Source: Bacilli bacterium (GTDB lineage: Bacteria; Bacillota_I; Bacilli_A; RF39; UBA660). Taken from it: a stretch of 64,000 bases of DNA. A program made the position numbers and the translations under genes. The notes under the pieces are model-generated. The model was not told where the DNA came from. It searched no databases and saw nothing but the letters and a program-made list of their open reading frames with translations. Location of the stretch: NCBI GenBank assembly GCA_045125935.1, contig JBGVNW010000068.1, positions 55,323 to 119,322 of the forward strand. The letters are read 5' to 3'. This document shows positions 26,090 to 64,000 of this stretch, one piece after another (position 1 is the first letter of the stretch; each line of letters opens with the position of its first letter).

Positions 26090-27682
26090 ATGAAAATTTT
26101 TAGAATCAAAAACAGACGAAATTCGCTAGCAACCAATTCGAGTTCAACACATTCGGTTGTTTATAAAAACAAAGATCAAGTATTTGAAGATTTGAATATC
26201 TTTGATAATAGATATTATGACCGACACACGGAAACTATCGCTGCTAGCCGTGAAGCAAAGATTCGCTATATCTTTGCGAATATCTTCCGTTGGAACGAAC
26301 TTGTCGAATTGATGTCAATGAGATATCCCGAAATGAAGGAATATTATCCTTTGGCAAAGGATTATTACGATATTTACTGTAATGATAAAAAATGGGAAGA
26401 ACTTCGCAAATCCAATGGTGATGAATATTGGGATTTGTGGGAGGAACGAGATAGTTATATGTTCGGAGACCACATGAGAGGTAATCTATATAACCATCAA
26501 GAACTTTATCTTTCTTATGAATTTCTTTGCAATATTATTGATAGTCCAGATATTGTCATTGTCGGTGGTAGCGACGAAGCAGACTTTGTATATGATACTA
26601 TCGATGGGTGTGATGAAATTTCAAGTAGTTTCTCATATATGAAAAATATTACCGAGAAAATAAAAAATGGTAATTACTATATATTGTATGGTAGCACATA
26701 TAACCAAAAGGAAAAGGTAAGATTGCAGGTGGATAGCATTCCAGATATGATACCAGAATATCCAGAACTTGTTGATATGAAAATCACAAATGCATGTGAA
26801 CATAACTGTCCGTTCTGCTATATGGCATCTACACCTAATGGCAAGCATTCAAATTTAAACGACATTTATGAAATTATATCTAAATTTAAAATTAAAACAG
26901 AATTCGCATTGGGTGGCGGAAATGTGTTGCTACATCCTGATTTTGACAAAATTGTAAGATATATCAAAATTAATGAACATATCGCTAACATTACTATCCG
27001 ATATGACGATATTGATACTATTAATAACAATGAGACAATCAAGGATGCTATCGAGAAATATGTAAGTGGTATCGGTCTATCTGTTCAGAAAGCAAATGAT
27101 GTAGATGTTGCAACAGACTTCATTAATAAGATGCTCGATCTTGGAAAGCATGTGTCGCTTCATATCATCCCCGAAATGATTGGAGTTGACGAAACAATTG
27201 CTATCCTTACCAAAATGAATGATATTAACAAACAACGAGTTGCCAATAAGAATTACGATGATCCTTATGCGACAAATAGATGTAAAGTATTATTTCTTGG
27301 TTTGAAGCAATCGGGTAGAGCAAAAAATCTTGAACACAAGTTGCTGTCAGAAGAAAATTTAGATTTATTCGCACAAACATCTGGTTATCAATTTAATGTA
27401 GATACTGCATTTATTAACACATACGAAACGTGGTTCGCAGAAACTTTCAATGGTGATGATGAGTTTTTCTTAACAAAACATGAAGGCGAGTATTCTATGT
27501 TTATTGATGCTGTCAAGATGCAAGCATATACATCATCATATAAAGATGATGGTGGTATTGACCTATACAAATATGATAGCGAATACGACTATGTTAAGGA
27601 TATTAATGAAGTGTTCGGAGAGATTCGTAAAAAGAATGGATTTAAAGTTTTTGAAAAACCTGAACCTTATTATAGAAAATAA
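26090..27682 (+). CDS. radical-SAM domain protein with an N-terminal extension of about 230 aa of unknown type
   Basis: ITNACEHNCPFCYM gives the CxxxCxxC 4Fe-4S/SAM cluster motif. The downstream GGGNVLLHPDF resembles the GGEPLL SAM-binding motif. I do not recognise the N-terminal region. Confidence 0.75.
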   Translation: MKIFRIKNRRNSLATNSSSTHSVVYKNKDQVFEDLNIFDNRYYDRHTETIAASREAKIRYIFANIFRWNELVELMSMRYPEMKEYYPLAKDYYDIYCNDKKWEELRKSNGDEYWDLWEERDSYMFGDHMRGNLYNHQELYLSYEFLCNIIDSPDIVIVGGSDEADFVYDTIDGCDEISSSFSYMKNITEKIKNGNYYILYGSTYNQKEKVRLQVDSIPDMIPEYPELVDMKITNACEHNCPFCYMASTPNGKHSNLNDIYEIISKFKIKTEFALGGGNVLLHPDFDKIVRYIKINEHIANITIRYDDIDTINNNETIKDAIEKYVSGIGLSVQKANDVDVATDFINKMLDLGKHVSLHIIPEMIGVDETIAILTKMNDINKQRVANKNYDDPYATNRCKVLFLGLKQSGRAKNLEHKLLSEENLDLFAQTSGYQFNVDTAFINTYETWFAETFNGDDEFFLTKHEGEYSMFIDAVKMQAYTSSYKDDGGIDLYKYDSEYDYVKDINEVFGEIRKKNGFKVFEKPEPYYRK

Positions 27683-27694
27683 TAATTATTATAT

Positions 27695-28015
27695 ATGAAA
27701 AGAGACATCATAGTTAAAATTTGTGAATGGTTTTTAATTACATCAACATCATTGATAGCAACAATGTCTGCAATCGTTGGTGATTATTTATCGATGGTGT
27801 GGGCGATTTTTGCAATAGTAGCACTTATTGCAATGTCATATATGGAAAAACTTATTGACGAGCGAGATGAAGTTATCATTACACAAGAAAAAGTTATTGA
27901 TGAACTAACTGAATTATATAACACATTAGTGGAAAATTATAACAAGTTAGAAGAAGAAAACAAAGCATTGTTAAACGAAATGGATAATCAATCGTTGTCT
28001 GACAGCAAACAATAA
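27695..28015 (+). CDS. membrane protein with C-terminal coiled coil (106 aa)
   Basis: Two hydrophobic segments, then an E/L-rich helix. Confidence 0.6.
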   Translation: MKRDIIVKICEWFLITSTSLIATMSAIVGDYLSMVWAIFAIVALIAMSYMEKLIDERDEVIITQEKVIDELTELYNTLVENYNKLEEENKALLNEMDNQSLSDSKQ

Positions 28016-28033
28016 AATAATAATTATTATTTT
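28014..28033. repeat. perfect 20-bp A/T palindrome
   Basis: AAAATAATAATTATTATTTT, overlapping the TAA of 27695..28015. Confidence 0.95.
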
Positions 28034-28053
28034 TTAAAACAATCACGAAAATA

Positions 28054-28085
28054 TTTGGCAATTAGAAACAAATGTATTATCTTTG
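28054..28085 (+). promoter_or_regulatory. Bacteroidota-type promoter
   Basis: TTTG-N20-TATCTTTG. The gene start is at 28103. Confidence 0.7.
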
Positions 28086-28102
28086 TAGAAAATAATTAAA
28101 CA

Positions 28103-28480
28103 ATGAGCAAAATGAGCATAGAAGACTATAAGAAAAGAATAGCGTATGGCGAACCATTTATGAAAACTTTATCAAATATTTCTATAAAAGATATAGTTGC
28201 CGTAATAGAAAAAATCTGGGAAAACTCCTGTGGAAATTTTTATTTCACAATTGAAAACGGAGAATATCTTAAAAAAGAATACGCAAATAAAACAATTACT
28301 GTTGAATATAATTCTAATCTTGATATTGAAACTATCATAGTGAAATGGAGTTTTTATGATCAAATAAAGATAGAACTATCAGCGTATGGTCTGACAGCAA
28401 CATATAAACCCGAACATGGTCAGAATAAAATAATATATGACATAACTTGGGTACTTGTTAATAGTTGGTTTCAAAATTAA
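28103..28480 (+). CDS. hypothetical protein, distant paralog of 51278..51559
   Basis: Shared C-terminal block: TATYKPEHGQNKIIYDITW here versus ISITFKPEHRSQEQLVYISW in the paralog. Confidence 0.6.
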   Translation: MSKMSIEDYKKRIAYGEPFMKTLSNISIKDIVAVIEKIWENSCGNFYFTIENGEYLKKEYANKTITVEYNSNLDIETIIVKWSFYDQIKIELSAYGLTATYKPEHGQNKIIYDITWVLVNSWFQN

Positions 28481-28538
28481 TGTTGAATTTAATTTGTAAT
28501 AAATAAAAATTATTTTTTTCGGAATTATCTATTTTAGA

Positions 28539-28570
28539 CTTGGTTTTTAACGAAAAAAATATTATATTTG
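28539..28570 (+). promoter_or_regulatory. Bacteroidota-type promoter (-33 CTTG variant)
   Basis: CTTG-N20-TATATTTG. The gene start is at 28656. Confidence 0.5.
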
Positions 28571-28655
28571 TAATGATAATGATGTTTATATCAAAAGAAT
28601 ATATAAATACAGAAAACAAAATATTTGAGTTATAACATAATAATTTATAGAATAT

Positions 28656-33360: not shown

Positions 33361-34743
33361 ATGATAACACTGAAGATTAAATATTCTACAACAGAAGATG
33401 GTTTAAATTTAATTAAGGAGTATAGAAAACAATACTCTTCGGTGCTTCATTTTGCTTATAACAGACGATATGAAGATATTAGTGAAAAAGTTATAGAACA
33501 TCAAATAAATTCATTGAATAATATCCCACTTATTAAATCATACATTAGTAGGTGTGCTGTAAAACATGCTACACAGTTGATTAAAACCGATGATAGAAAA
33601 CGAATATTTGGTGGTAAAAAGAATTTTATTGCTCGTTGTAAAGGAAAAATAACTAAAGATGAGTTTCTAAATAAACGATTAAACAATTTATATATTATTG
33701 GTGAAGCAAACCAACATGGCAATAGATTTATTAAATTAAATGATGATTTAGAATCTTTTACGTTTAAACCAACAAAGAAAGATAAAATTATTTTGTCTAT
33801 TGATGGTATATATAAAAGATATAAGTCAATATTAAATAAATTATATCATTTACAGCAAGATAAGCAAATACCTATAACATATGAGTTGGATAATGAGTAT
33901 ATTTATTTAACTTATGATGAAACATTATTAAACAAATTTGTTGATTATAAACCTATTAAAAACAGGATATTTGCTATTGACTTAAACCCTAATTATATAG
34001 GTTGGTCTGTTGTAGATTGGAAAAGTAGCAGTAAGTTTGAAGTTGTTAAAAGTGGAGTTATTAGTGTAAAAGATATAAATAATATCGACTTTGGTTTAAA
34101 AGGTAAATCAAGCGAATCAAAAGAAAGAATTTATATCAATAACAAAAGAACATTTGAAACATACGAAATAAGTAAGTTATTAGTTAATACTGCTAAATAT
34201 TATAGGTGTGAAATGTTTGGTTTAGAGGAACTTAATATTAAAAGTAAAGACACAGACAAAGGTAAACACTATAATAGGTTAGTTAATAATGTTTGGAATA
34301 GAGATAAACTCGTTAATAATATTAAGAAACGCTGTAACATATATTCTATTAGAGTGATGTTAGCGAAACCTAATTATAGTTCATTCGTAGGTAATTTTTT
34401 ATTTAGAGATTTAAATCTACCAGATATGACACTGGCATCTATAGAAATAGGTAGAAGATGTTATGAGTTTAAAACACAATATATAGATAAAACAAAAGAT
34501 AAAAGAAAAAATATAATTTTACCTGATGTTAATGATTTTAATGATAGATATATTAAGTCGTTGGAAGAATTTAATATACCTGGAGAAACCAAAGAATTAG
34601 TTAAAATATATTATTTCTTAAAAAACGCTAAAAGCAGATATAGGGTTTCTTTAGATGAATTAAATCATCTGGAGTTTTCGAGATGTTTTTCAAACAAAAG
34701 TAAAGTTAAGAAAATTTTAATAACAATACATAAAAACACATAA
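33361..34743 (+). CDS. divergent TnpB/Cas12-like RuvC nuclease without a zinc finger (460 aa)
   Basis: RuvC-I is RIFAIDLNPNYIGWSVVD. RuvC-II is CEMFGLEELNIKS. The YTSQ-like motif is AKPNYSSFVGNF. The RuvC-III-like block is LPDMTLASIEIGRR. There is no CxxC...CxxC between the last two blocks. The N-terminus MITLKIKYSTTEDGLNLIKEYRKQYSSVLHFAYNR is TnpB-like. Confidence 0.7.
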   Translation: MITLKIKYSTTEDGLNLIKEYRKQYSSVLHFAYNRRYEDISEKVIEHQINSLNNIPLIKSYISRCAVKHATQLIKTDDRKRIFGGKKNFIARCKGKITKDEFLNKRLNNLYIIGEANQHGNRFIKLNDDLESFTFKPTKKDKIILSIDGIYKRYKSILNKLYHLQQDKQIPITYELDNEYIYLTYDETLLNKFVDYKPIKNRIFAIDLNPNYIGWSVVDWKSSSKFEVVKSGVISVKDINNIDFGLKGKSSESKERIYINNKRTFETYEISKLLVNTAKYYRCEMFGLEELNIKSKDTDKGKHYNRLVNNVWNRDKLVNNIKKRCNIYSIRVMLAKPNYSSFVGNFLFRDLNLPDMTLASIEIGRRCYEFKTQYIDKTKDKRKNIILPDVNDFNDRYIKSLEEFNIPGETKELVKIYYFLKNAKSRYRVSLDELNHLEFSRCFSNKSKVKKILITIHKNT

Positions 34744-35132: not shown

Positions 35133-35166
35133 GATGGATAGCAATCGCTGTCCATCTTTTTTTTTT
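35133..35166 (+). terminator. intrinsic terminator
   Basis: GATGGATAGC-AATC-GCTGTCCATC, a 10-bp stem including one G.U pair, followed by T10. The stem arms are themselves GATAGC/GCTGTC motifs. Confidence 0.8.
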
Positions 35167-49431: not shown

Positions 49432-49446
49432 AAACAAATAAAGATT

Positions 49447-52608: not shown

Positions 52609-52950
52609 ATGGAAAATGAAGTTATGACAAAGAAATTTGGTGCTTCCAGCATCAACCGTGAGATGTTCAACGACTGTTTCAACCCTGCTATCGATATGTC
52701 AAATGTGTCCGATGAATTCATGCAAGACCTTGCAGACACAACTGAAGACTACTTGAAAAAGAAATACGGTAGCGACGCAGATAAGATGTTTTCTATCTGG
52801 TCTGATGACTACTTGACAGATGACAACTCTATCATCATTGCAACAGAATACAAAAACATCTGGGAAGAATATTGGAATGTGCTTGAAGAACTCGCTCCTA
52901 AATTTGGAGGCGTAGTATCAAACAACAATTCAGAGAGTGCTGTCGAATAA
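52609..52950 (+). CDS. hypothetical acidic protein (113 aa)
   Basis: ORF track. Confidence 0.6.
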   Translation: MENEVMTKKFGASSINREMFNDCFNPAIDMSNVSDEFMQDLADTTEDYLKKKYGSDADKMFSIWSDDYLTDDNSIIIATEYKNIWEEYWNVLEELAPKFGGVVSNNNSESAVE

Positions 52951-53001
52951 GCACTCTCTAAAAAAAATAATTATTATTTTTAGAAAAAAATCATCTGAAA
53001 A

Positions 53002-53033
53002 TTTGGTTATTTCAAAAAAAGTTATTATCTTTG
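53002..53033 (+). promoter_or_regulatory. Bacteroidota-type promoter
   Basis: TTTG-N20-TATCTTTG. Confidence 0.7.
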
Positions 53034-53067
53034 TAATATAAAAACAACAACAAACAACAGAAACATT

Positions 53068-53442
53068 ATGACACACTTAAATTCACTTATCGACAGCAAA
53101 CGCAACTATTCAAAGAAATATTCTGAATTGCTAACAGCAAAGAATGCGTTGATAACAGAACAAGAAAATACTTTGACAGCAATCGTCAAAGAAGCACAGC
53201 AATCCGATGTTGAAGGAATTGACATCAAATCTCTGGGTATAACAGTCGAACTTGACGGCAATGAACCACTATTGGTGGAAGCTATCCGAGTGGTAAATCA
53301 AACAAACTATGTGGAACTAAAAGTGAATACATTGGATTCATATAAGTTTGATGATGAGTGGATTAGCATCTATGACTTCTATTCCGATACTGCTGAAAAA
53401 ATCCTCTTCGGAATAATGGAAATAATGGAGTTAATTAAATAA
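53068..53442 (+). CDS. hypothetical protein (124 aa)
   Basis: ORF track. Confidence 0.6.
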   Translation: MTHLNSLIDSKRNYSKKYSELLTAKNALITEQENTLTAIVKEAQQSDVEGIDIKSLGITVELDGNEPLLVEAIRVVNQTNYVELKVNTLDSYKFDDEWISIYDFYSDTAEKILFGIMEIMELIK

Positions 53443-53487
53443 AAAATGGCGCATTTGTATATTATATAATATATAGTTTTTAAAGAA
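53441..53487 (+). promoter_or_regulatory. conserved element AAAAAATGGCGCATTTGTATA... (copy 2 of 2)
   Basis: Nearly identical to 37975-38025. It replaces the usual palindrome/promoter cassette in front of 53501. Confidence 0.35.
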
Positions 53488-53500
53488 TATACTTTGACCT

Positions 53501-53902
53501 ATGGTTGATATAAGAAACTTAACGAGATTCCCTATATTAGACTTAAAAGAAGAACTTACTAATAATGGGGTTAAGAGTGGAAAGCACTCGGAGATTTTTA
53601 ACTACTTTAAGAAGCATCTTGATGATACAGAGTTTTATTGTATCTCTCAATATAATCCTGTACAAAAGAATATTACTTTCGGTCGTTGCGAGAGTATTAG
53701 TAGAATTTTTTTAACAAATGATTATTCTAACTTTTTTATTACAGCACCTTGTGATGTTGAAGGTTTAAAGACTAAAGCTGTCATTCAGGGAATCGAACCT
53801 AAAAATGGAAGACAACTTCAAATAGCGAGAGATTTTAGGGTAGTATATCTGTCAAAGAAAGCAGTCGATATCTACTTATCAAAATGTGAAGAACAAAAAT
53901 AA
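53501..53902 (+). CDS. hypothetical protein (133 aa)
   Basis: ORF track. Confidence 0.6.
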   Translation: MVDIRNLTRFPILDLKEELTNNGVKSGKHSEIFNYFKKHLDDTEFYCISQYNPVQKNITFGRCESISRIFLTNDYSNFFITAPCDVEGLKTKAVIQGIEPKNGRQLQIARDFRVVYLSKKAVDIYLSKCEEQK

Positions 53903-53915
53903 TAATTATTTTTTT

Positions 53916-54107
53916 ATGAAAGGATATATAGTTAAGATTTTATCTTTAATTCTAAAATTTATATTTGCTGTGTATAGCATTCCGTTTATTGTTATTTTAG
54001 CAACAGCAATTATAGCAGTTATATTATTTGTATGTGCGTTTGGCATATTAATCTCTCCATTATTTTTGTTATATTGTGTAATTTATTGGTTAAGTGAATT
54101 GGATTAG
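53916..54107 (+). CDS. small two-TM membrane protein (63 aa)
   Basis: Track ORF 53886..54107. I moved the start to the ATG at 53916, after the palindrome. Confidence 0.55.
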   Translation: MKGYIVKILSLILKFIFAVYSIPFIVILATAIIAVILFVCAFGILISPLFLLYCVIYWLSELD

Positions 54108-54110
54108 ATT

Positions 54111-54395
54111 ATGGAAAATAAAAATGAAAACATGCTGCCAGAATCTGACAGCAATACGGCAACTGTTGATGAATCAAATGAAATGGTTCAACTGTTAGAG
54201 AACGATCCTGATGTTCTGAAATTAAAAGAGCAACAGGCAGAACTGATGAGGTTGATTGATGACTCAAGAGTGATGAAATCTTATAAGAAGGTCAGAAATG
54301 AAATATATGGTATCGGGATCCGAAAACCCGTAAGTAAGAAAGAAAAGAAAAAGAAAAAGGCAAAGCGTCGTATGGCGAAGCAATCAAAACGATAA
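54111..54395 (+). CDS. hypothetical protein with Lys-rich tail (94 aa)
   Basis: ORF track. Confidence 0.55.
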   Translation: MENKNENMLPESDSNTATVDESNEMVQLLENDPDVLKLKEQQAELMRLIDDSRVMKSYKKVRNEIYGIGIRKPVSKKEKKKKKAKRRMAKQSKR

Positions 54396-54444
54396 GAAAG
54401 ATATTATATTAATTTAATTTTCTATTTTAAATATATTTATATAG

Positions 54445-54485
54445 GATAGACATCGTCGGGATGATGAGGTCTATCTTTTTTTTTT
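54445..54485 (+). terminator. intrinsic terminator (CATCGTCG..GATGAGG family)
   Basis: GATAGACATCGTC-GGG-ATGATGAGGTCTATC followed by T10. Confidence 0.75.
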
Positions 54486-54522
54486 AATAATAATTATTTT
54501 TTTGAAAAAAGTTGCTGAAAAA

Positions 54523-54554
54523 TTTGGTGGAATGAAAAATAATCACTAACTTTG
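54523..54554 (+). promoter_or_regulatory. Bacteroidota-type promoter (family B)
   Basis: GTTGCTGAAAAATTTGG...TAACTTTG with an N20 spacer. Confidence 0.7.
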
Positions 54555-54589
54555 TAGTGTAGATAATAAACAACTAAACAAATACAAAT

Positions 54590-55162
54590 ATGGGACAAAC
54601 ATTAGCAACTCGTACTTTCGGTAAGAAAGCATCAGAAATTACAAAAGAAGAATTTGTATATATGATGCTTGAAGACATTCAACTTGCAAAAGAAGCATAC
54701 ACAAAGTCTATCAATGAGCAAGCAGAGAAATGGCATCAAGATGTTATATCAAGAAAGACATCTGAAATCATTGCGTCTTCTTTCAAGAAATACAAGCGTG
54801 AGAGTTATCGTCTGCGTTGGGTTGAATCTGAAATCGCAAAGATTTCTGGAACTTTCACAAAGGAATATTTCGGATTCGGCGGACAGTTGCTATCAATATA
54901 TTGGAATATCAAACCTTGGTCTTTTGACGGAGGAACATCTATTTCACTGAACACCGATAAACTCGAACAAACTTTACATCGTATCTACGACGAAGCATCT
55001 CGTAACAAGTATTTTATCAACTGCTCTGGTTGGGACATTATAGATAAAAAAATTGTGCTTCATCTATCAGACGAGTTGACAGCAGAATGGACAGCAGATG
55101 CAAAGATGTTGAGCGATTCAGTATCAAGATTCTATGAAGGAACTAAATATTGGGGAGATTAA
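54590..55162 (+). CDS. hypothetical protein (190 aa)
   Basis: ORF track. Confidence 0.6.
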   Translation: MGQTLATRTFGKKASEITKEEFVYMMLEDIQLAKEAYTKSINEQAEKWHQDVISRKTSEIIASSFKKYKRESYRLRWVESEIAKISGTFTKEYFGFGGQLLSIYWNIKPWSFDGGTSISLNTDKLEQTLHRIYDEASRNKYFINCSGWDIIDKKIVLHLSDELTAEWTADAKMLSDSVSRFYEGTKYWGD

Positions 55163-55212
55163 TTTCTCCCTAATAAAAAAATAATTATTATTTTGAAAAA
55201 AGTTGCTGAAAA

Positions 55213-55244
55213 ATTTGGTGCTTTCAGAAATAATTGCTAACTTT
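55213..55244 (+). promoter_or_regulatory. Bacteroidota-type promoter (family B)
   Basis: TTTG-N20-TAACTTTG. Confidence 0.7.
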
Positions 55245-55280
55245 GTAGTGTAAATAATAAACAACTAAACAACAATCGTT

Positions 55281-55790
55281 ATGAAAAAGATTACTTATAG
55301 AGAAATGCCTATTTTGAGCGAACCTACATATCGCTTTCATATTTTGCCAGACGGCACTATGGTAGATGTATATGCTGTTAGATATGACAGCAAGGTCGAC
55401 ATTGAAAACCACAAATATCTTTCACCTGGTGATGATGGTTATAATGAGTCTGAATTACCAACACTAAATGACTTGTATGCTAACGGCACTATGGGTAAAG
55501 AAGGAAGTTGTATTGAAAACGAACACCGAGTAGATTTGGGATATAGACCAACTTTGTCTGACAGCAAAATCAAAAAGATTATTGCAGAGTTTAAGAAAAA
55601 TGGTTTCAACATAACAAAGGAGGCGATCCTACACAACTACGATGCGTGGAGATATGATATGAAAAGTGGCTATCGTGATGATGTAAACAATTATCATTTG
55701 TTCAGTCCTTGTGGTTGCAATCCACTTTCTTTCCGAGCAACTACACTTCATGAAAAATGTTCTGATTGGCAAAATACATATACTTGCTAA
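55281..55790 (+). CDS. hypothetical protein (169 aa)
   Basis: ORF track. Confidence 0.6.
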   Translation: MKKITYREMPILSEPTYRFHILPDGTMVDVYAVRYDSKVDIENHKYLSPGDDGYNESELPTLNDLYANGTMGKEGSCIENEHRVDLGYRPTLSDSKIKKIIAEFKKNGFNITKEAILHNYDAWRYDMKSGYRDDVNNYHLFSPCGCNPLSFRATTLHEKCSDWQNTYTC

Positions 55791-55809
55791 ATTTATGAAT
55801 ATATTTTCA

Positions 55810-55901
55810 CTCTGACAGCATTTCTCTTATCAAGTGGTATAAAGTATCACCTGAAAAATTTGAGGGGCTTAAATCGCATTAAATTGCGTTTGCTGTCAGA
55901 G
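55810..55901. repeat. 11-bp inverted repeat CTCTGACAGCA...TGCTGTCAGAG flanking an 70-nt spacer
   Basis: Arms at 55810-55820 and 55891-55901, read directly from the sequence. Confidence 0.8.
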
Positions 55902-55948
55902 CGAAAAAATAATTATTATTTTTGAAAAAAGTTAAATCAAATACAATT

Positions 55949-56650
55949 ATGGCTAACAACATTTCAAATCAACTTATCGTTACTGCTAACACTAACGAAG
56001 AACTTCAAAACTTTTTGAGTGCTATCAAAGGTAATAATATTATGGATAGACAGCAACAGGTCATAGATTTTAATATGATTATACCTATGCCATTACCTTT
56101 GCGCGATACAGAGGCATCTTCGTATATTGATGATGCTATCCATTACTATAAGGCTAAAAACAATCTTGTTGAATATGACAGACAGAAAATGGACAGATTG
56201 AAGAAATCTAAAAAAGAACTGCAGGAACTATACAAGATTGGTGAGCAATATGTTGGATATGAAAAAGAGTTTGGGGCAAAAGATTGGTATGATTGGAGTC
56301 GTGCAAATTGGGGAACTAAATGGAACGCTTATCACACGAGTGTAAAAATGCTTTCGGACACAACTGCTGAAATTGATTTTGACACTGCTTGGAGTGGAGT
56401 ACCAGACATCATACTGAAATTGATAGAAATGTTTCCTTCGCTAAAATTTGAATACCTATTCGCAGATGAGGACATGGGATATAATTGTGGTGAAGGATAT
56501 TCAAAAAATGGTGAGTTTTATTTTGAAATGCTTGAACCTTGCAGTGTAGAAGCGATGAGAACTTATGCAATTTGTAAGGGATATGAAATTGAAGATTTCT
56601 ATCAAGATAGCGACGGTCATTGGCACAATCGTGAATGGGAAGATGATTAA
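55949..56650 (+). CDS. hypothetical protein, possibly DUF1281-like (233 aa)
   Basis: Track ORF 55922..56650 starts at TTG. I prefer the ATG at 55949. I associate the motif ANWGTKWNAYH...DTAWSGVP with DUF1281/Api92-like proteins, but my recollection is weak. Confidence 0.6.
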   Translation: MANNISNQLIVTANTNEELQNFLSAIKGNNIMDRQQQVIDFNMIIPMPLPLRDTEASSYIDDAIHYYKAKNNLVEYDRQKMDRLKKSKKELQELYKIGEQYVGYEKEFGAKDWYDWSRANWGTKWNAYHTSVKMLSDTTAEIDFDTAWSGVPDIILKLIEMFPSLKFEYLFADEDMGYNCGEGYSKNGEFYFEMLEPCSVEAMRTYAICKGYEIEDFYQDSDGHWHNREWEDD

Positions 56651-56694
56651 GATTAAAAAATAATTATTATTTCTAACATTAAACAATAGACATT

Positions 56695-57042
56695 ATGAAT
56701 ATCTTTGAATATGCTTCGTCTTGTGAATATTGCTTTGAGCAATTTCTTCAAGCAGTTGGTAAGGAACGCAAAACTACTTTCTACTCGGATCTGTCGATAG
56801 CAGAGTGGTGTGGTACATCTGCTATTAAGGATACTTATAGACAAGTTATGGATTCTTGGGGATATGACCTTGAATATATGTGTGAATGGGTGATTGCTCT
56901 CAACCAGAAAATCTGGCAACACAATAATAGCAATCCAGAAATTGGAAAGTTATATGATTTGCTCTGGAGATCTGCTGACGAGTATTGTATGAATCACTTT
57001 AAGGGTGATGACCTGACAGCATACCTGCGATATGTAGATTAA
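56695..57042 (+). CDS. hypothetical protein (115 aa)
   Basis: ORF track. Confidence 0.6.
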   Translation: MNIFEYASSCEYCFEQFLQAVGKERKTTFYSDLSIAEWCGTSAIKDTYRQVMDSWGYDLEYMCEWVIALNQKIWQHNNSNPEIGKLYDLLWRSADEYCMNHFKGDDLTAYLRYVD

Positions 57043-57078
57043 AAAAATAATTATTTTTTGAAAAAAACCACCAAAAAA

Positions 57079-57110
57079 TTTGGTGGTTTCATTTTTTATT
57101 GCTAACTTTG
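57079..57110 (+). promoter_or_regulatory. Bacteroidota-type promoter with hairpin over the -33 box
   Basis: AAACCACCAAA-AAA-TTTGGTGGTTT plus a T-run. TTTG-N20-TAACTTTG. Confidence 0.7.
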
Positions 57111-57150
57111 TAGTGTCAATAAGACATAAAACAACTAAACAACAATCGAT

Positions 57151-57522
57151 ATGAAAAAACTTTCTTTACAATGTGTGATTGAAGAGGAAATCTTGTTCAC
57201 AAACAAAAAAATATTTAAGGATAACGAAGAATATTCGTACACATGTAAATGCTATGACGGTGTTGCAATTTGTACTCCAACTCCTGATGATGAAGAAGAA
57301 GATGAAACAAATCTACCTATGATTATCGCAACTTATCCAAAACGTAAAGATGTACTATTGGACAGCGAATTGTGTAGAAGTATTCTTGACTATCGTGGTT
57401 TATATGATTTGAGAAAAAATCAAATTACATTTGGCGACATAATGCTAAAATTGGGCAAACTCACAAAAGTCAAAGATTCTGAAATAGAGTTAGCATTACA
57501 ACTGTTTTCTGCTAATATCTGA
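57151..57522 (+). CDS. hypothetical protein (123 aa)
   Basis: ORF track. Confidence 0.6.
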   Translation: MKKLSLQCVIEEEILFTNKKIFKDNEEYSYTCKCYDGVAICTPTPDDEEEDETNLPMIIATYPKRKDVLLDSELCRSILDYRGLYDLRKNQITFGDIMLKLGKLTKVKDSEIELALQLFSANI

Positions 57523-57559
57523 AAAATAATTATTATTTTGGAAAAAAGATAGCAAATAA

Positions 57560-57591
57560 TTTGGTGCTTTCAGTTTTATTTGCTATCTTTG
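57560..57591 (+). promoter_or_regulatory. Bacteroidota-type promoter
   Basis: TTTG-N20-TATCTTTG. Confidence 0.7.
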
Positions 57592-57626
57592 TAGTAGAAA
57601 TAACAACAACTAAAACAATTGAAGAT

Positions 57627-57911
57627 ATGAAACTTACAAACAAAGACAAGTTTTATTTGCTATCAAAAGGTTATAGCAATGAAGATTTCACAGCAATCGA
57701 AGATGCTTCAAAAAATATGGTATATACAATATTCGACACACAAGACGAATTTGCACCAGAAGCAAAAATCAAAAAAACAACTGCTATCGAGTTGTTGGGC
57801 AGAGAACGCTATCTGTTAGCAATCGCAAGAGCAACATTTCATAACTCTGCTGTCAGAACACATAGCACGATAGAGAGAATGGGAATTTTATTTGAAAGAA
57901 CTAACTTCTAA
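57627..57911 (+). CDS. hypothetical protein (94 aa)
   Basis: Track ORF 57561..57911 starts inside the promoter. I prefer the ATG at 57627 (MKLTNKDKFYLL...). Confidence 0.55.
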   Translation: MKLTNKDKFYLLSKGYSNEDFTAIEDASKNMVYTIFDTQDEFAPEAKIKKTTAIELLGRERYLLAIARATFHNSAVRTHSTIERMGILFERTNF

Positions 57912-57927
57912 AAAATAATTATTTTTT

Positions 57928-58128
57928 ATGGCAACAACTACTTATAGAGTAAAATATTGCCCGCCGAATCCAGGATGGAACTCAAGAAAACTAAAAGAAA
58001 ACAGGTGGTTCACATCCCTGAAAGATTTACAGGAATATGTTGAGAGCAATCCTTCTGTTATCAATGAAATCTGGGTTAGTAATAATGGAAAGAAATTTGT
58101 TAAATTTAATTATAATGAAATAATATGA
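57928..58128 (+). CDS. hypothetical protein (66 aa)
   Basis: ORF track. The palindrome abuts the ATG. Confidence 0.5.
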   Translation: MATTTYRVKYCPPNPGWNSRKLKENRWFTSLKDLQEYVESNPSVINEIWVSNNGKKFVKFNYNEII

Positions 58129-58901
58129 TAACATCAGTATATAAATATCGCACATTACACGGAATTATAGAATATAAAATAATCAATGGTGAATTTGGAA
58201 TTGACAGCACACTACATTTACAAGACACAAGTTGCGAACATTCAGGTCCAAATTGTGAGATTGAAGTAGTGAAGTGTGAAAGTGGTAATTGCTATCAGTT
58301 CTCAAAGTCGTTGAACCAATCTGCAAAATATTATGAATATTTTCATACTTTGGAGAAATACTGGGAAACAAAGGAAGATGCTTATGTCGAAGTATTGATG
58401 TCAAGCATCAATTCATATCAAGAAAGAATTGAAGAGCAGAAAACTCGAATATCAAATGCAGAGGCGAAGTTGAAAGGAATGGAAGTAAAAGAAGTAAATT
58501 ACTTAATGCCAGATTCCGTAACAAACACTTGCTATATAGATGATATTGGTGTATGCGATATAATTGGGACTATTCGGTTTAAGGATGGTTCAGAAGGATA
58601 TCTCACCGACAGTAATTATTCAACATATTGCGACGGTGAATATATTGACGGCGATCGCATTATTCTCGTTGAAAATAAGAATAATGGCAGAATGGAAACA
58701 GAGCGAGGAGATATTGTGTTCTTGACAAAAGTTGATTCTGACAATTACAAGTTTGACAATAAAATAAAAGACACTATTAAGATTATCGTTGATAGCAATA
58801 AAGCAATATCCACATATAGAGAGCGAATTGAGAAATGTAAAAACATCATTGATAATAAGGATAGTTTGAACATAGACCAAATGAGAGAAATGACAAAATA
58901 A
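58125..58901 (+). CDS. hypothetical protein (258 aa)
   Basis: ORF track. ATGA overlap. Confidence 0.6.
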   Translation: MITSVYKYRTLHGIIEYKIINGEFGIDSTLHLQDTSCEHSGPNCEIEVVKCESGNCYQFSKSLNQSAKYYEYFHTLEKYWETKEDAYVEVLMSSINSYQERIEEQKTRISNAEAKLKGMEVKEVNYLMPDSVTNTCYIDDIGVCDIIGTIRFKDGSEGYLTDSNYSTYCDGEYIDGDRIILVENKNNGRMETERGDIVFLTKVDSDNYKFDNKIKDTIKIIVDSNKAISTYRERIEKCKNIIDNKDSLNIDQMREMTK

Positions 58902-58940
58902 AAAAAAATAATTATTATTTTGAAAAAAGTTCTCAAAATA

Positions 58941-58972
58941 TTTGGTAGTTTCAGAAAAAATGATTAACTTTG
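58941..58972 (+). promoter_or_regulatory. Bacteroidota-type promoter (first of a tandem pair)
   Basis: TTTG-N20-TAACTTTG. The cassette ...CAGAAAAAATGATTAACTTTGTA(A/G)TGTAAAACAA is duplicated 89 nt downstream. Confidence 0.65.
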
Positions 58973-59029
58973 TAATGTAAAACAAAAGCAATAAAAGCAA
59001 GAAAAAAAATAAAAAAAGTTGGTCAAAAA

Positions 59030-59061
59030 TTTGGAAGTTACAGAAAAAATGATTAACTTTG
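59030..59061 (+). promoter_or_regulatory. Bacteroidota-type promoter (second of the tandem pair)
   Basis: TTTG-N20-TAACTTTG. The gene start is at 59126. Confidence 0.7.
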
Positions 59062-59125
59062 TAGTGTAAAACAAATCAAGAGAGTAAATAAACAATAATA
59101 GTAACAATTAAAAATCTAAAAGATT

Positions 59126-59377
59126 ATGGCAAATTTTAAGACAACATCAGTAGAAGAATTAAACAAAATGCTTCACGAAGGTATCGTAGAGTTCGAGTTC
59201 ATCAAGAAAGACGGCAGTGTTCGTCAAGCAAAAGGCACATTGCTAACAGAACATCTTCCTGCACCGAAAGCAGACGCAACTCCTCGCAAGAAGAACGATA
59301 ATGTGTTGGTCTATTTTGACCTTGACAAGAAGTCATTCCGTTCTTTCGTTAAGGCAAGTTTCGTAGGAGCATACTAA
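59126..59377 (+). CDS. small beta-rich protein, possibly DUF2693-like (83 aa)
   Basis: FEFIKKDGSVRQAKGTLLTEHLP resembles the KKDG..R...GTL pattern of SH3-like Bacteroides phage proteins. My recollection of this family is weak. Confidence 0.55.
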   Translation: MANFKTTSVEELNKMLHEGIVEFEFIKKDGSVRQAKGTLLTEHLPAPKADATPRKKNDNVLVYFDLDKKSFRSFVKASFVGAY

Positions 59378-59391
59378 TTCTTGAGAGAAAA

Positions 59392-59426
59392 CAAGTGTGG
59401 GTTGAACACCGAAAGCAACCCACACT
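59392..59426 (+). terminator. 12-bp hairpin after 59126..59377 (no U-tract)
   Basis: AAGTGTGGGTTG...CAACCCACACTT. The palindrome follows at about 59445. Confidence 0.4.
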
Positions 59427-59462
59427 TTCCAAACCAAAAACAAAAAATAATAATTATTTTTT

Positions 59463-59723
59463 ATGAAGAATACAGAATATTCGCAACTATACAGAGAATA
59501 TCGCTCATTGGTAGAAAACTTTAACACAATCGTCGAACGCATCATCAAGACAAAGTTTGAAATGGATTATCTATGGAAGTATAAGAAAGATTATCCATCC
59601 GACTGGAAGCGAATGGCAGAGAAACTCACATCTGATAGAAATGATTCAAAATCAATTCGATTTGCTATCAGAGAACTAAAGTTAAAAATGAGAGAAGTCA
59701 ATTCAAATTTCACTAAAAAATAA
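59463..59723 (+). CDS. hypothetical protein (86 aa)
   Basis: ORF track. Confidence 0.55.
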   Translation: MKNTEYSQLYREYRSLVENFNTIVERIIKTKFEMDYLWKYKKDYPSDWKRMAEKLTSDRNDSKSIRFAIRELKLKMREVNSNFTKK

Positions 59724-59730
59724 TATAGCA

Positions 59731-60141
59731 ATGAAACGCAAATATACGATAAAACTTATGGGAACCAATTGCTACTTGAAAAACACTGGTCAAAATGGCA
59801 TAAATTTTACGACCGACATCAAGAAAGCAAAAGTGTTTGAATATAGCGAAAAGGAAGACATCATTGATAAATTGAGGTCTGGAAATTTTAAGGTGAAAGG
59901 TGAGCGACATGTAACAGATCATGTACGACTTACAATGGACAAAGAAACCTGGCAATATCTATATAATAAACACCTTGATAAAATTCAAGACATTTCAGAT
60001 TGTAGACTCGCTATACACCAGTTCTCAATAACATTGGTCGATAAGTTTAAAACCAAAGCATTGTCGTATAGCAAAACAGGAGAGTATCCTAATTTCAATT
60101 GCGATTATTATGGTGAAGATTTCGAAAGAGAAACAATCTAA
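59731..60141 (+). CDS. hypothetical protein (136 aa)
   Basis: ORF track. Confidence 0.6.
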   Translation: MKRKYTIKLMGTNCYLKNTGQNGINFTTDIKKAKVFEYSEKEDIIDKLRSGNFKVKGERHVTDHVRLTMDKETWQYLYNKHLDKIQDISDCRLAIHQFSITLVDKFKTKALSYSKTGEYPNFNCDYYGEDFERETI

Positions 60142-60159
60142 AAAATAATAATTATTATT

Positions 60160-60399
60160 ATGATAAAAGAAGGTACAATGTTTTCGATGAAAGCAAACTA
60201 CGACGAAAACAAGGAATATAAATATGTGGTCATAGAACGACTTGACAATATTGCTTGTGGCAGAGGAGGTTGGTTGTGTGTTGAGCAGGAAGCAATATCA
60301 AAAAAACCTGATAACATCTCACCATTTGATTGCTGGCGAGTAACAGATAAGTTTCTTGAAACCCAAATACAACGAGGCGTAATTAAAATCATTAACTAA
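60160..60399 (+). CDS. hypothetical protein (79 aa)
   Basis: ORF track. The palindrome abuts the ATG. Confidence 0.55.
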   Translation: MIKEGTMFSMKANYDENKEYKYVVIERLDNIACGRGGWLCVEQEAISKKPDNISPFDCWRVTDKFLETQIQRGVIKIIN

Positions 60400-60413
60400 A
60401 AAACAACAACCAA

Positions 60414-60833
60414 ATGAAAACTCAAATCAAAGTAACAGCATTAGAACACGAAGAATTAGTAGATTTGCTATCAACAGCACTTTACGGAAGTTCTTGGTTC
60501 GGAGCAGGTTATAATAAAGATAAGTATAATGCTATCAAAGAAAAACATGGCGAATGCTTTGAAGATGCACTGGCAGATATGCTGATCGCTGGGCATAAGA
60601 TTGAGATTACAGATTTTGAAGCAGAAGGTGAAAAGTATTCTAATAAGTTTGTGAGATTTGATGGTAAGTATGAAAGTGCTGTTTATGAAGTTGGTTTGGA
60701 AGATTTTCTTAAAGTCGCATCTACTAAACGAGGATATCAATTAGTTGATGATGTGCTATCAGGTGAAGGTGATTATTGGACAGCAGACGCTTTCCTTCAA
60801 CGAGTTGTGTTTGGTGAAGAAGTGTATGGATAA
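60414..60833 (+). CDS. hypothetical protein (139 aa)
   Basis: ORF track. Confidence 0.6.
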   Translation: MKTQIKVTALEHEELVDLLSTALYGSSWFGAGYNKDKYNAIKEKHGECFEDALADMLIAGHKIEITDFEAEGEKYSNKFVRFDGKYESAVYEVGLEDFLKVASTKRGYQLVDDVLSGEGDYWTADAFLQRVVFGEEVYG

Positions 60834-60896
60834 TCTTTATCTTTATTATTAAATTTATTTATATAAACCGATATAAGTGAAAGTATATCGGGTTCC

Positions 60897-60938
60897 GAAT
60901 GAGCATCGTCGTGAAGATGAGGTTCATTCTTTTTTTTT
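60897..60938 (+). terminator. intrinsic terminator (CATCGTCG..GATGAGG family)
   Basis: GAATGAGCATCGTC-GTGA-AGATGAGGTTCATTC followed by T9. It is preceded by a second hairpin, CCGATATA..TATATCGG. Confidence 0.75.
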
Positions 60939-60982
60939 AAAAAAAAAAATAATTATTATTTTGAAAAAAAGTTCTCAAAAAA

Positions 60983-61014
60983 TTTGGTGGAATGAAAAAT
61001 ATGTTGTATCTTTG
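60983..61014 (+). promoter_or_regulatory. Bacteroidota-type promoter
   Basis: TTTG-N20-TATCTTTG. Confidence 0.7.
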
Positions 61015-61040
61015 TAGTGTAAAACTAAAACAACAACGAT

Positions 61041-61325
61041 ATGAAACGAAAAGACATCATCAACGAAGTAGAAAAAGCATTGGTTACAAGATATGCTTGG
61101 AATAAGAATTATGACAACGGCACTATGCTCACTCAATATGCAATTTACTACAACAAGAGAGCAAAAAAACCTCTCGGTTGGTTACAAGTCGGATATTATA
61201 TCGATAGCGATGAGGTAATTGGTGCAAGTATCGATTTTAACAATGCTGAAAGAACTGAAGTAGAAATCGAAAAAATTGAAGACATTGAAAAAATAATCCC
61301 AAATTTATTTGGAAAATCAAAATAA
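61041..61325 (+). CDS. hypothetical protein (94 aa)
   Basis: ORF track. Confidence 0.55.
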   Translation: MKRKDIINEVEKALVTRYAWNKNYDNGTMLTQYAIYYNKRAKKPLGWLQVGYYIDSDEVIGASIDFNNAERTEVEIEKIEDIEKIIPNLFGKSK

Positions 61326-61339
61326 AAACATTATCTTTG
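61308..61339 (+). promoter_or_regulatory. Bacteroidota-type promoter whose -33 box lies inside the upstream coding sequence
   Basis: TTTG(61308-11)-N20-TATCTTTG(61332-39). No palindrome is present here. Confidence 0.6.
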
Positions 61340-61376
61340 TAATAGAAAAATAAGTTAAACTAAAAACATAAAAACA

Positions 61377-61709
61377 ATGAATTACAACGAAAAACTTGAA
61401 AGTCTTGCAAAAGAATTTGACGCAACTGTAAATCACGCAGTAGAAGTAATGGAAGAGTTTATGGCAACTGCTATCGAAAAAGAAGTAATGGATGCTATCA
61501 ACAGACTATCTCCTGAAGAAAAGGAAATGCTCTTGGTATTCACTATGCTCGACGAATTGATGCAATCTCAACCAGAACCAGAACCAGAAAAGGATGATGA
61601 TGATGACATCTGGGCAAAGATTTACAAGGAAGAAAAGGAACAAATGGAGCAAGAGCAATTGATGCAAAAACAAATCACAGAAGAAATGCTAAAATATCTA
61701 TTTAGATAG
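61377..61709 (+). CDS. hypothetical acidic protein (110 aa)
   Basis: ORF track. Confidence 0.6.
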   Translation: MNYNEKLESLAKEFDATVNHAVEVMEEFMATAIEKEVMDAINRLSPEEKEMLLVFTMLDELMQSQPEPEPEKDDDDDIWAKIYKEEKEQMEQEQLMQKQITEEMLKYLFR

Positions 61710-61716
61710 CAATATA

Positions 61717-61752
61717 TGTATCCTCCCTCAAATATTTGGGGGAGGACATACA
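61717..61752 (+). terminator. hairpin after 61377..61709
   Basis: TGTATCCTCCC...GGGAGGA(CA)TACA. An A-run and the palindrome follow. Confidence 0.4.
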
Positions 61753-61792
61753 AAAAAAAAATTATTATTTTGTTATATTTAAGTAGAAAACA

Positions 61793-61999
61793 ATGAAAGG
61801 GTGTTTAACATTAATAATAATTATAGCAATTCTTACCTGTTTGGTAGGTTGGATGTTTTCAACTGATTGTTTATTGCTGGAAATTTTGATAGCAATCATA
61901 TCATTTGTATTAATCATAGTTGCTGTAATCGTAGTAGGAATTGCAATAATATTTCTAATTGCATTTGCTATTTGGTTATTGATAGAAATCCTTTGGTAA
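61793..61999 (+). CDS. small two-TM membrane protein (68 aa)
   Basis: ORF track. Almost entirely hydrophobic. Confidence 0.5.
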   Translation: MKGCLTLIIIIAILTCLVGWMFSTDCLLLEILIAIISFVLIIVAVIVVGIAIIFLIAFAIWLLIEILW

Positions 62000-62020
62000 A
62001 AAAAAAATAATTATTATTTT

Positions 62021-63058: not shown

Positions 63059-63095
63059 AAAATAATTATTATTTTGAAAAAAAGTTGCTGAAAAA

Positions 63096-63127
63096 TTTGG
63101 TAGATTGAAAAAAAAGCAGTAACTTTG
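63096..63127 (+). promoter_or_regulatory. Bacteroidota-type promoter (family B)
   Basis: TTTG-N20-TAACTTTG. Confidence 0.7.
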
Positions 63128-63176
63128 TAGTGTAAATAATAAACAAAGCAATTAACAACAATTAAATGAAATCGTT

Positions 63177-63383
63177 ATGAAAGCAAAAATTCAAACAATC
63201 GCAACAATCATAATAGGAGTAGTAGTAGCACTTCCTTGTGTTATGATATTCAATGACAACGAAAGTTTTTTGCCTAATTTTATTGGTATGGCATACTTCG
63301 CTGGTTTGATAGCATTTTGCAAATACACCAAACTCGGCAAACGCTTCGCTAAAAGGTTAGAAGAAATAAATGATAAATTTTGA
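63177..63383 (+). CDS. small membrane protein (68 aa)
   Basis: ORF track. Confidence 0.5.
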   Translation: MKAKIQTIATIIIGVVVALPCVMIFNDNESFLPNFIGMAYFAGLIAFCKYTKLGKRFAKRLEEINDKF

Positions 63384-63402
63384 AAAAAAAGTTACCGAAA
63401 AA

Positions 63403-63434
63403 TTTGGTAGTTACAAAAATAATCACTAACTTTG
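63403..63434 (+). promoter_or_regulatory. Bacteroidota-type promoter (family B, without a palindrome)
   Basis: TTTG-N20-TAACTTTG. Confidence 0.7.
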
Positions 63435-63478
63435 TAGCAGAAAAAAGAAACAATAACAACAACTAAATAATAGAAACT

Positions 63479-63925
63479 ATGACAAAGATTTATTTGACAA
63501 TCGCAGAAAGTCTTGGAACAGACAACGAATTTTCAACAGAAGTGTTCGTTTATATGACACCACAAGAAGCAGGCGAAATGGCATCATCGCTCATCGCCGA
63601 TATGATTAAAACAATGTATGACGGAGAGCAAGAAATCGATCCAACAAGACATTGGGAACTTGAAGGAGATGGATGGTTCTTTAGAGTGAGAGTTGAAGAA
63701 GCAAAAATCCCAGTAGAAGTGAAAAGAACAAAGAGATTTGCTTCAAACATTTCGTGGGACACGGACACCGAGTCTGAAACTATCTTCGACGTGCTCTATG
63801 TCAACGACTTGCCTTCATTGGTAGAAATCCCAGAGTGTGTAGATGATGAAAGCATCGCCGACTATCTGTCAGATGAATTTGGATTCACTGTAATGTCGTT
63901 TGTAATTAAACACGAAAATCTCTAA
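63479..63925 (+). CDS. hypothetical acidic protein (148 aa)
   Basis: ORF track. Confidence 0.6.
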   Translation: MTKIYLTIAESLGTDNEFSTEVFVYMTPQEAGEMASSLIADMIKTMYDGEQEIDPTRHWELEGDGWFFRVRVEEAKIPVEVKRTKRFASNISWDTDTESETIFDVLYVNDLPSLVEIPECVDDESIADYLSDEFGFTVMSFVIKHENL

Positions 63926-63934
63926 ATATAAAAA

Positions 63935-63967
63935 CTAATCGGGGGATATATGAAATCCCCCGATTAG
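63935..63967 (+). terminator. 13-bp hairpin after the last gene
   Basis: CTAATCGGGGGAT-ATATGAA-ATCCCCCGATTAG. A palindrome-like A/T run follows. Confidence 0.5.
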
Positions 63968-64000
63968 AAAAATAATAATTTTTTTTTCAAGAAACATATA

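Follow-up and report, generated by a model that had tools for sequence, protein, structure and literature searches.

A dispersed nine-base word is positively selected on both strands in one clade of huge gut phages

Introduction

What makes a single short word recur throughout tens of kilobases of protein-coding DNA, in both orientations and across reading frames? This question is raised by a 64,000-nt stretch of contig JBGVNW010000068.1 (assembly GCA_045125935.1, positions 55,323 to 119,322), hereafter the window, in which the hexamers GACAGC and GATAGC (jointly GAYAGC) and their complements GCTGTC and GCTATC (GCTRTC) are heavily repeated. The window has a G+C content of 30.2%, and its long open reading frames (ORFs) lie essentially all on the plus strand. 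An earlier note, made by eye, had described a heptamer, GAYAGCA, as over-represented and had likened it to DNA uptake sequences, to Chi or KOPS-type signals, or to the target of a DNA-binding, nicking or modifying activity. The answer reached here is that the motif has been positively selected as a recognition word on duplex DNA. It is neutral in orientation, specific to one clade of uncultivated gut phages of about 350 kb, and read by some protein.

Results

The GAYAGC word and its extent

The over-representation of GAYAGC in the window is real. Exact counting gave 48 GACAGC and 35 GCTGTC (83 in all), together with 43 GATAGC and 59 GCTATC (102 in all), against third-order Markov expectations of 8.8, 4.6, 12.7 and 10.9, which sum to about 13 and 24. 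In an exhaustive scan, these were the top four over-represented hexamers of the window, with z values of 8.5-14.6. The earlier note had counted about 80 and 100 sites by eye, had estimated about 10 and 20 by hand as the expectation, and had proposed k-mer enrichment against a third-order Markov null. Its counts and estimates were close to the exact values, the four hexamers rank highest under that null, and its example positions were right within a few bases (sites at 38155, 38843, 40826, 55078 and 55090).

The profile built from 590 distinct sites reads Y-B-G-A-Y-A-G-C-R (consensus CTGACAGCA / TTGATAGCA) and carries about 13.7 bits. All of this information lies from -2 to +1; beyond these positions it drops to about zero and the outer flanks are random. 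Among single-base variants of the core, GACAGC was enriched 10x, GATAGC 7.3x and GAAAGC 2.6x, most others stood at about 1x, and the one-mismatch neighbours of the motif were not depleted. The flanks modulate these values strongly: C at -2 raised core enrichment to about 20x and A at +1 to about 14x, and enrichment was slight or nil for cores preceded by A at -1 or by A or G at -2 and for those followed by T at +1. Because enrichment depends on these three flanking positions, the selected unit is the graded 9-mer YBGAYAGCR, which is longer than the heptamer first claimed. Extended shared flanks, as repeats or paralogy would leave, were not found across the sites; few of them stand in common contexts.

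Counted as the full 9-mer, the word is unevenly spread. The motif-rich zone (27000..64000) holds 155 GAYAGC/GCTRTC hexamers, of which 125 are full YBGAYAGCR 9-mers against 9.6 expected (13x), 62 on the plus and 63 on the minus strand. The cool zone (1..27000) holds 30 hexamers, 17 of them full 9-mers against 2.6 expected (about 6x). GACAGC had been described as concentrated past about 27 kb, and 76 of the 83 GACAGC/GCTGTC sites do lie there. The hottest part of the rich zone, 40000..62000, mostly carries 4-9 sites per kb.

Selection on the DNA itself

For the coding sites, we used a synonymous-codon shuffle within each gene, which keeps all proteins and the codon usage of each gene. The shuffled genes held about 49 sites, whereas 141 were observed (z of 5.4-11.7 per word); therefore, the excess is selected at the DNA level. 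Similar counts in such a codon-preserving shuffle had been named in the earlier note as one possible refutation, and the shuffle fails to reproduce the counts. When codons were permuted instead, only about 22 in-gene sites remained, so that the proteins are bent about 2-fold to accommodate sites. Base composition cannot account for the excess.

The choice of codons shows the same pressure. In 27-64 kb, 27 of the 45 Asp-Ser dipeptides are written GAY-AGC, although AGC makes up 15% of Ser codons, as against 3 of 23 in 1-27 kb. Likewise, Ala-Ile pairs are written GCT-ATC in 21 of 61 cases and Ala-Val pairs GCT-GTC in 9 of 37 (27-64 kb). The motif occupies every reading frame that stop codons permit, in both orientations, as the earlier note had observed; sense frame 1 is empty, being blocked by TGA/TAG. 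Selection acts on the DNA itself, bending codon choice and even amino-acid choice, and protein-level selection is no explanation, as had been argued at the outset.

An artefact of composition, codon usage, paralogs or repeated intergenic elements could still be suspected, as one site context is common to three paralogs (sites at 6492, 12838 and 24268), a few GCTATC lie in promoters (TATCTTTG), and some sites belong to a local CTGAAATC...TTGCTGTCA intergenic repeat. However, such cases are a handful of the 185 sites. Markov models of orders 0-3, codon permutation and the synonymous shuffle all fall short of the counts, the flanks beyond the 9-mer are random, and the word is enriched in independently assembled relatives that are 66-80% identical. 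We rejected this reading as extremely improbable.

Spacing, mosaic structure and mobile genes

Within 27-64 kb, gaps between sites average 235 bp and are roughly exponential, neighbouring sites are no more alike in orientation than chance would make them, with no orientation domains, and sites are distributed evenly along gene bodies. About a quarter of the sites are intergenic. Most intergenic regions have no site, so the motif is separate from their regular layout of stop codon, AATAATTATTATTT element and promoter.

The window is a mosaic. With the motif sites masked, the G+C content at third codon positions (GC3) rises from 0.21 (1-40 kb) to 0.31 (40-64 kb), and site density per gene correlates with masked G+C or GC3 (rho about 0.5). 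The cool zone contains accessory genes, namely three paralogs, a TnpB fragment, an SPFH gene and a glucosaminidase gene. With accessory genes between them, the SPFH and radical-SAM genes lie 22 kb apart in the window, against 2 kb in one relative (L050); the SPFH/radical-SAM region is cool (6-7x) in both. The three paralogous genes (5716-6708, 11732-13060 and 23567-24490) have the common site context aatgcctattggaaGATAGCgggagaagaacttg.

The signature spares recently acquired mobile genes. A TnpB-related gene of the IS200/IS605 type (33361..34743, plus strand) has no site in 1,383 bp, where about 5.8 would be expected at the local density, and looks like a recent mobile arrival without the signature. 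Also free of sites are the TnpB fragment of the same type, Cas12f1-like with a TNB domain (21664-22197), and a mobile-type HNH endonuclease gene (44264..44830, plus strand).

Relatives and controls

The hot-zone loci of the relatives were all fetched via a DNA methyltransferase of the window (46768..48405, plus strand) or its upstream neighbour. In every clade locus fetched via the methyltransferase, GACAGC/GATAGC rank at or near the top of the hexamers, and there are 2.6-7.5 sites per kb. These loci come from several independent assemblies, with protein identities of 66-97% and G+C contents of 0.30-0.41. In 96 kb of pooled relatives, the 9-mer occurs 370 times against 28.4 expected (13x), 182 times on the plus and 188 times on the minus strand. 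The C form dominates in GC-richer relatives and the T form in AT-richer ones, with little change in the enrichment ratio. Of the sites in the methyltransferase gene, 5-7 are kept in eight of eight orthologs, where C and T, or A and G, replace each other freely at the degenerate position; the other sites turn over, and each ortholog holds 7-16 sites per 1.6 kb.

Outside the clade, the enrichment is absent. The 9-mer was found once in crAss001 (4.2 expected), once in a sister clade whose radical-SAM protein is 54% identical (2.6 expected), and five times in a distant clade of the same phage family (radical-SAM 39% identical; 3.6 expected). For the host comparison suggested in the earlier note, three Bacteroidales chromosomal loci gave 15 against 10.5 expected; these loci may not be the host's. 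None of these four sets has another dispersed word of comparable strength, and no other dispersed motif was found in loci with distant methyltransferase homologs. These controls favour a reader that is clade-specific and not host-generic, and they place the origin of the enrichment within this clade, after the split from the sister clade. The motif is therefore not a generic trait of AT-rich Bacteroidota phages, which the earlier note had listed as a possible outcome.

In the sister and distant clades (L052/L053 and L054/L055), some hexamers fall below expectation, with 0 GACAGC against 4.2 in L052 and 1 GATAGC against 7.5 in L054, values that are not statistically robust. The hexamer depletion ranks in the outgroups (26 of 1459 and 7 of 1898) are no more than suggestive and were not used as evidence of a restriction target; the two clades may weakly avoid the hexamers.

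One clade member, L028, has lost the signature. Its genes are about 73% identical to those of the window, yet it has one hexamer in 5.8 kb and none of seven sites at orthologous positions, the losses having occurred through a synonymous ATC-to-ATA change and through amino-acid changes. No replacement motif was found in L028 or in the likewise motif-poor L017, where the words in excess are strand-specific and promoter-like only.

A conversion bias of fixed strength would also keep the ratio level across GC contents, and this brings in a mutational alternative: site-directed repair or biased gene conversion could create the word from near-cognates, with no function for the single sites, as in a model of very short patch repair coupled to a methyltransferase. 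In E. coli, words akin to the Dcm site change in frequency through Vsr/Dcm repair. However, an effect of 10-20x far exceeds known repair-driven biases, the C and T variants are both enriched, contrary to T:G-to-C:G patch repair, and the one-mismatch neighbours are not depleted. Amino acids are also altered to hold sites (22 against 49 in the two nulls). We consider this drive very unlikely.

Strand symmetry and Chi-like signals

A Chi-like control word would be read on the GT-rich strand (5'-TGCTRTCAR) by a helicase-nuclease, either host AddAB/RecBCD or a phage enzyme. At the word, the enzyme would stop degrading and start recombination, and a dense array would protect phage DNA and feed recombination-dependent replication. 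Several features are in keeping with this: Chi-type words typically have such a length (8-9 nt) and graded flanks and are missing from recently acquired genes, and the correlation of density with masked GC3 (rho about 0.5) would fit recombination-associated GC-biased conversion. Additionally, host Chi sites are numerous in some phages, such as P1 and certain lambdoid phages. Chi, the FtsK-orienting polar sequences (KOPS) and the SpoIIIE recognition sequences (SRS) share with the phage motif a GT-rich strand and over-representation in resident DNA, and Chi can be exploited by phages.

The symmetry of the motif speaks against it. Chi and KOPS words are strongly skewed, whereas the motif has no strand polarity in the 37 kb of co-oriented genes (62:63) or in the 96 kb of relatives (182:188). 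Moreover, a host Chi should benefit the sister clades equally, but they are unenriched, as are crAss001 (1 against 4.2) and the Bacteroidales loci (15 against 10.5, with the reservation on their host status given above). Owing to the strand symmetry in a co-oriented region and the unenriched related phages, polar signals are disfavoured, and we judge a Chi-like word quite unlikely.

Uptake-like architecture and a possible binding-site array

Of the analogies drawn in the earlier note, that with DNA uptake sequences and uptake signal sequences (DUS/USS) fits best, the target of a DNA-binding or modifying activity fits as well, and the Chi/KOPS comparison is disfavoured. As in DUS/USS, a short core with weaker flanks is enriched about 10-fold or more, lies equally in both orientations (62:63 and 182:188) with roughly exponential spacing, uses all allowed frames inside genes, and is rare in recently acquired DNA.

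Inverted pairs of DUS/USS double as terminator hairpins, and a few cases occur here. The clearest is the pair GATGGATAGC-aatc-GCTGTCCATC followed by T10 (35133..35166, plus strand), a terminator-like hairpin of -16.3 kcal/mol (z -4.7). The pair TGACAGCA...TGCTGTCA (43194..43229, plus strand) forms a hairpin 3' of a gene (-11.2 kcal/mol, z -2.7), and CTCTGACAGCA...TGCTGTCAGAG (55809..55903, plus strand) closes a 95-nt intergenic structure (-34.2 kcal/mol, z -5.3). Among closely spaced motif pairs, 28 are inverted and 17 direct.

The differences are also clear. The carrier here is a lytic-type huge phage and not a competent bacterium, no uptake step is known for phages, and the phage motif is 4-5 times denser (one per about 300 bp against about one per kb). 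The analogy concerns architecture and not membership; a phage would not be expected to have competence genes, and none were seen.

This architecture would suit an array of binding sites for a non-modifying phage DNA-binding protein, such as a nucleoid protein, a packaging-recognition protein or a protector delivered by the virion. Many weak sites would jointly favour phage DNA, in the manner of DUS/USS and possibly with molecular drive. The graded 9-bp profile resembles an affinity footprint, and DUS/USS are likewise neutral in orientation, occur in all frames and lend their inverted pairs to terminator stems. A small, uniform advantage per site fits the constant observed/expected ratio, and the hot zone encodes many conserved small proteins without an assigned function. 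Against such an array, no DNA-binding candidate was identified, the sole conserved neighbour examined has an uninformative fold, and the roughly 2-fold regional difference (13x against 6-7x) is not predicted by a pure whole-genome label. An array of this kind is, in our view, unlikely.

A methyltransferase as the candidate reader

The constant ratio of about 13x over G+C contents of 0.30-0.41, the sparing of mobile genes and the selection at the DNA level led us to regard the word as a recognition tag read by a clade factor. Our tentative reading, which may well need replacing, is that the reader is a clade-specific phage-encoded factor, that its best candidate is the N6-adenine methyltransferase encoded at 46768-48405, and that both strands would be densely self-marked. 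This gamma-class enzyme combines N6_Mtase and Eco57I matches with a TaqI_C specificity domain. Among the recognisable sequence-specific DNA enzymes, it alone is at once conserved, restricted to the clade and placed in the hot zone. Identity within the clade is 66-97%, and the next homologs reach at most 44%; the closest bacterial homologs (39-45% identity) come mostly from Bacteroidales metagenome-assembled genomes. With 13 sites (7.9 per kb), its gene is the most site-rich of the larger genes, and in all loci this gene falls within the hot zone. The family has a TaqI_C-type specificity domain with weak kinship to type IIS A-methylases and recognises short asymmetric adenine-containing sites. 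Like the sites of orphan or type IIS/IIG enzymes of this class, the word is asymmetric and has invariant adenines and a single degenerate Y in its 6-bp core, and the middle of the hot zone encodes a conserved enzyme of this kind.

Under the methyltransferase reading, the enzyme would read the GAYAGC word and write it as N6-methyladenine (m6A). An asymmetric site would be methylated on one strand only; with equal orientations, both strands would carry marks, about one per 300 bp, and both daughter duplexes would stay marked after replication. The weakest step is that dense m6A would mark DNA as 'self', by which a DNA-processing activity of phage or host (nuclease, repair or packaging) might tell phage from host or competitor DNA. 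Possible effectors of such mark-dependent discrimination, proposed by inference only, are the products of an IceA/NlaIII-like nuclease gene (30971-31660, plus strand) and the adjoining type II restriction-enzyme-like gene (31691-32419, plus strand).

The stronger form of this proposal is a genome-wide identity code, in which the 9-bp word, enriched about 13x and written as m6A, would be read by a phage machine to separate self from host and competing phages. Nuclease control, strand discrimination in repair and packaging choice are candidate roles for that machine. We regard the code as rather doubtful; if true, it would be epigenetic self-recognition through site enrichment, and not through avoidance or wholesale base replacement.

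Several observations weigh against the methyltransferase. The enzyme and the enrichment are confined to the same clade, but L028 lacks enrichment and its methyltransferase C-terminus agrees with the clade consensus at 54 of 54 highly conserved columns (125 residues visible); to the extent of these 125 residues, carrying the gene is not sufficient for enrichment. The graded, flank-sensitive 9-bp profile is unusual for type II-like methyltransferases and more like that of an affinity-based DNA binder. Sites of such enzymes are normally neutral or avoided in phages, whereas this word is 13-fold enriched, and to our knowledge no methylation site has been described as under positive selection this strong on a genome-wide scale. 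No homolog with a known recognition site was found, and a PDB sequence search with the enzyme returned type I M subunits and the catalytic domain only, with nothing on specificity. Finally, the co-location of methyltransferase and hot zone is partly an effect of how the loci were ascertained.

Avoidance of restriction sites

Phage genomes are known for avoiding short words cut by restriction enzymes, and the GAYAGC word shares with such avoidance a frequency signature of sequence-specific DNA enzymes, with the opposite sign: a restriction target would be under-represented, and this word is selected for (13x). Classic avoidance is present in the clade, with observed against expected counts of 16 and 138 for CTCAG, 21 and 75 for CTAAG, 67 and 339 for AGCT, 19 and 177 for ACGT, 3 and 90 for CCGG, 139 and 404 for CATG, and 243 and 526 for GATC. 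The phage DNA must therefore encounter restriction enzymes and lacks global hypermodification, against which a word enriched 13-fold stands out all the more. As the rest of the genome shows normal restriction avoidance, the motif word appears to be treated as safe or beneficial. The window and the clade loci very strongly avoid CTNAG and 4-bp palindromes, GGCC among them. CTGAAG is not avoided in the clade, whereas crAss001 avoids it completely (0 against 48).

Source genome and encoded genes

The source of the window is an uncultivated huge phage, since it has no match among GenBank phages or in IMG/VR and its large clade of metagenome relatives lies on contigs of up to 372 kb. A megablast search of 33-48 kb against GenBank phages gave no match, tblastn with the methyltransferase and the sigma factor against the same set gave distant matches only (below 30% identity), and neither the sigma factor nor the methyltransferase alignment, when scanned against IMG/VR, returned clade members. 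Stop-codon recoding was rejected, as the ORF statistics were no better with TAG or TGA read through.

Two DNA methyltransferases had been reported in the region, and both were confirmed. The second, N6_N4_Mtase of the CcrM/orphan type (39416..40225, plus strand), is split into two ORFs (39416-39697 and 39722-40225) that jointly cover one profile, and the identical split occurs in L001, a contig of independent origin. Either a pseudogene, a frameshift or an enzyme made of two parts could account for it. The sigma-70-family phage factor (51664..52503, plus strand) is syntenic with the gamma-class methyltransferase in relatives and marks a conserved hot-zone module. Further products encoded in the region are HNH nucleases, YopX, a radical-SAM protein and TnpB-like genes.

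The neighbour immediately 5' of the gamma-class methyltransferase in every relative examined is an acidic 104-aa protein (46362..46676, plus strand). It is confined to the clade, with 217 homologs, and is 72-95% identical among the 120 listed; no Pfam family was found for it. Its single-sequence model was poor (predicted local distance difference test, pLDDT, of 49), the alignment-based model reached a pLDDT of 72, and the latter fold matches uncharacterised phage proteins only.

The radical-SAM protein (530 aa, 26090-27682) has weak viperin-like matches. It falls into three identity tiers (65-97%, 51-55% and 36-42%) on phage contigs of 180-330 kb (L050, L052 and L054) and is a useful marker gene for this phage family. 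In relatives, Cas6 and a Cas3-like HD-helicase lie just 5' of the hot zone (L007, 1-4300), and an Acb3-like gene, directed against cyclic-oligonucleotide-based antiphage signalling (anti-CBASS), lies directly 5' of the pair formed by a 101-aa protein and the methyltransferase (L056, 9215-9907; L057, 5590-6276). These upstream genes suggest that the hot zone is an early anti-defence region.

Promoters, intergenic elements and RNAs

Most genes are preceded by promoter-like sites of the Bacteroidota form (TTTG, about 17 nt, TAnnTTTG). A fuller form reads gaaaaaTTTGG, about 17 nt, TAnnTTTGTAGTGTAAA and an A-rich leader (for example 42570-42635, 42880-42950, 49110-49200 and 63070-63177). The word TTTGTA[AG]TGTA, with 19 copies on the plus strand only, is the second most striking over-represented word family of the window. 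The motif was also considered as a promoter or sigma-factor site and rejected, as its sites are intragenic and in both orientations and the promoter-like motifs are on the plus strand only.

Between stop codon and next promoter lies a palindromic AT-only element, AATAATTATTAT, with 37 copies on the plus and 22 on the minus strand (for example 40265-40285 and 49043-49062); it is abundant in relatives too, the motif-free L028 included. Near the tRNA cluster (40000-56000), a local intergenic repeat, CTGAAATC(A)AATGGTGATTGCTGTCA, recurs (for example at 43205, 44850, 45075 and 45745). CTGAAATC has 14 copies on the plus strand and one on the minus strand, and some seem to start tiny ORFs (ATGGTGATTGCTGTC).

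One tRNA gene (43322-43700) is split by a group I intron at 43379-43629 (Rfam RF00028, 46.6 bits against a gathering threshold of 50, E 3e-10). A second tRNA-like gene (about 43820-44235) has an insert of about 350 nt without an Rfam match, and tRNA-Leu(TAA) at 44924-45008 is the sole intact tRNA reported (ARAGORN; Rfam at gathering threshold). The segment 48420-49100 is about 700 bp without a convincing ORF, with several hairpins and seven motif sites. A non-coding RNA may be encoded there, and no Rfam family matched the segment at gathering threshold.

Discussion

In form the word most resembles DUS/USS, and in possible chemistry the sites of orphan methyltransferases, but by the tests run it is neither. 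Literature searches gave no description of it, the matches being PCR primers and unrelated papers only, and a few keyword searches gave no comparable orientation-neutral enriched word in phages. We found no description, for any phage, of strong clade-wide positive selection for an orientation-neutral short word.

The contrast between the motif-rich lineages on one side and the motif-free L028 and the sister clades on the other can guide a search for the reader by comparative genomics. The motif is also a cheap signature of clade membership and of resident as opposed to recently acquired genes. If the word is the site of the conserved methyltransferase, these phages would label their DNA as self by dense site-specific methylation, where T4-like phages have hypermodified bases and nucleus-forming phages a protein shell. 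The selection itself means that a widespread group of very large gut phages has a sequence-reading activity not recognised before.

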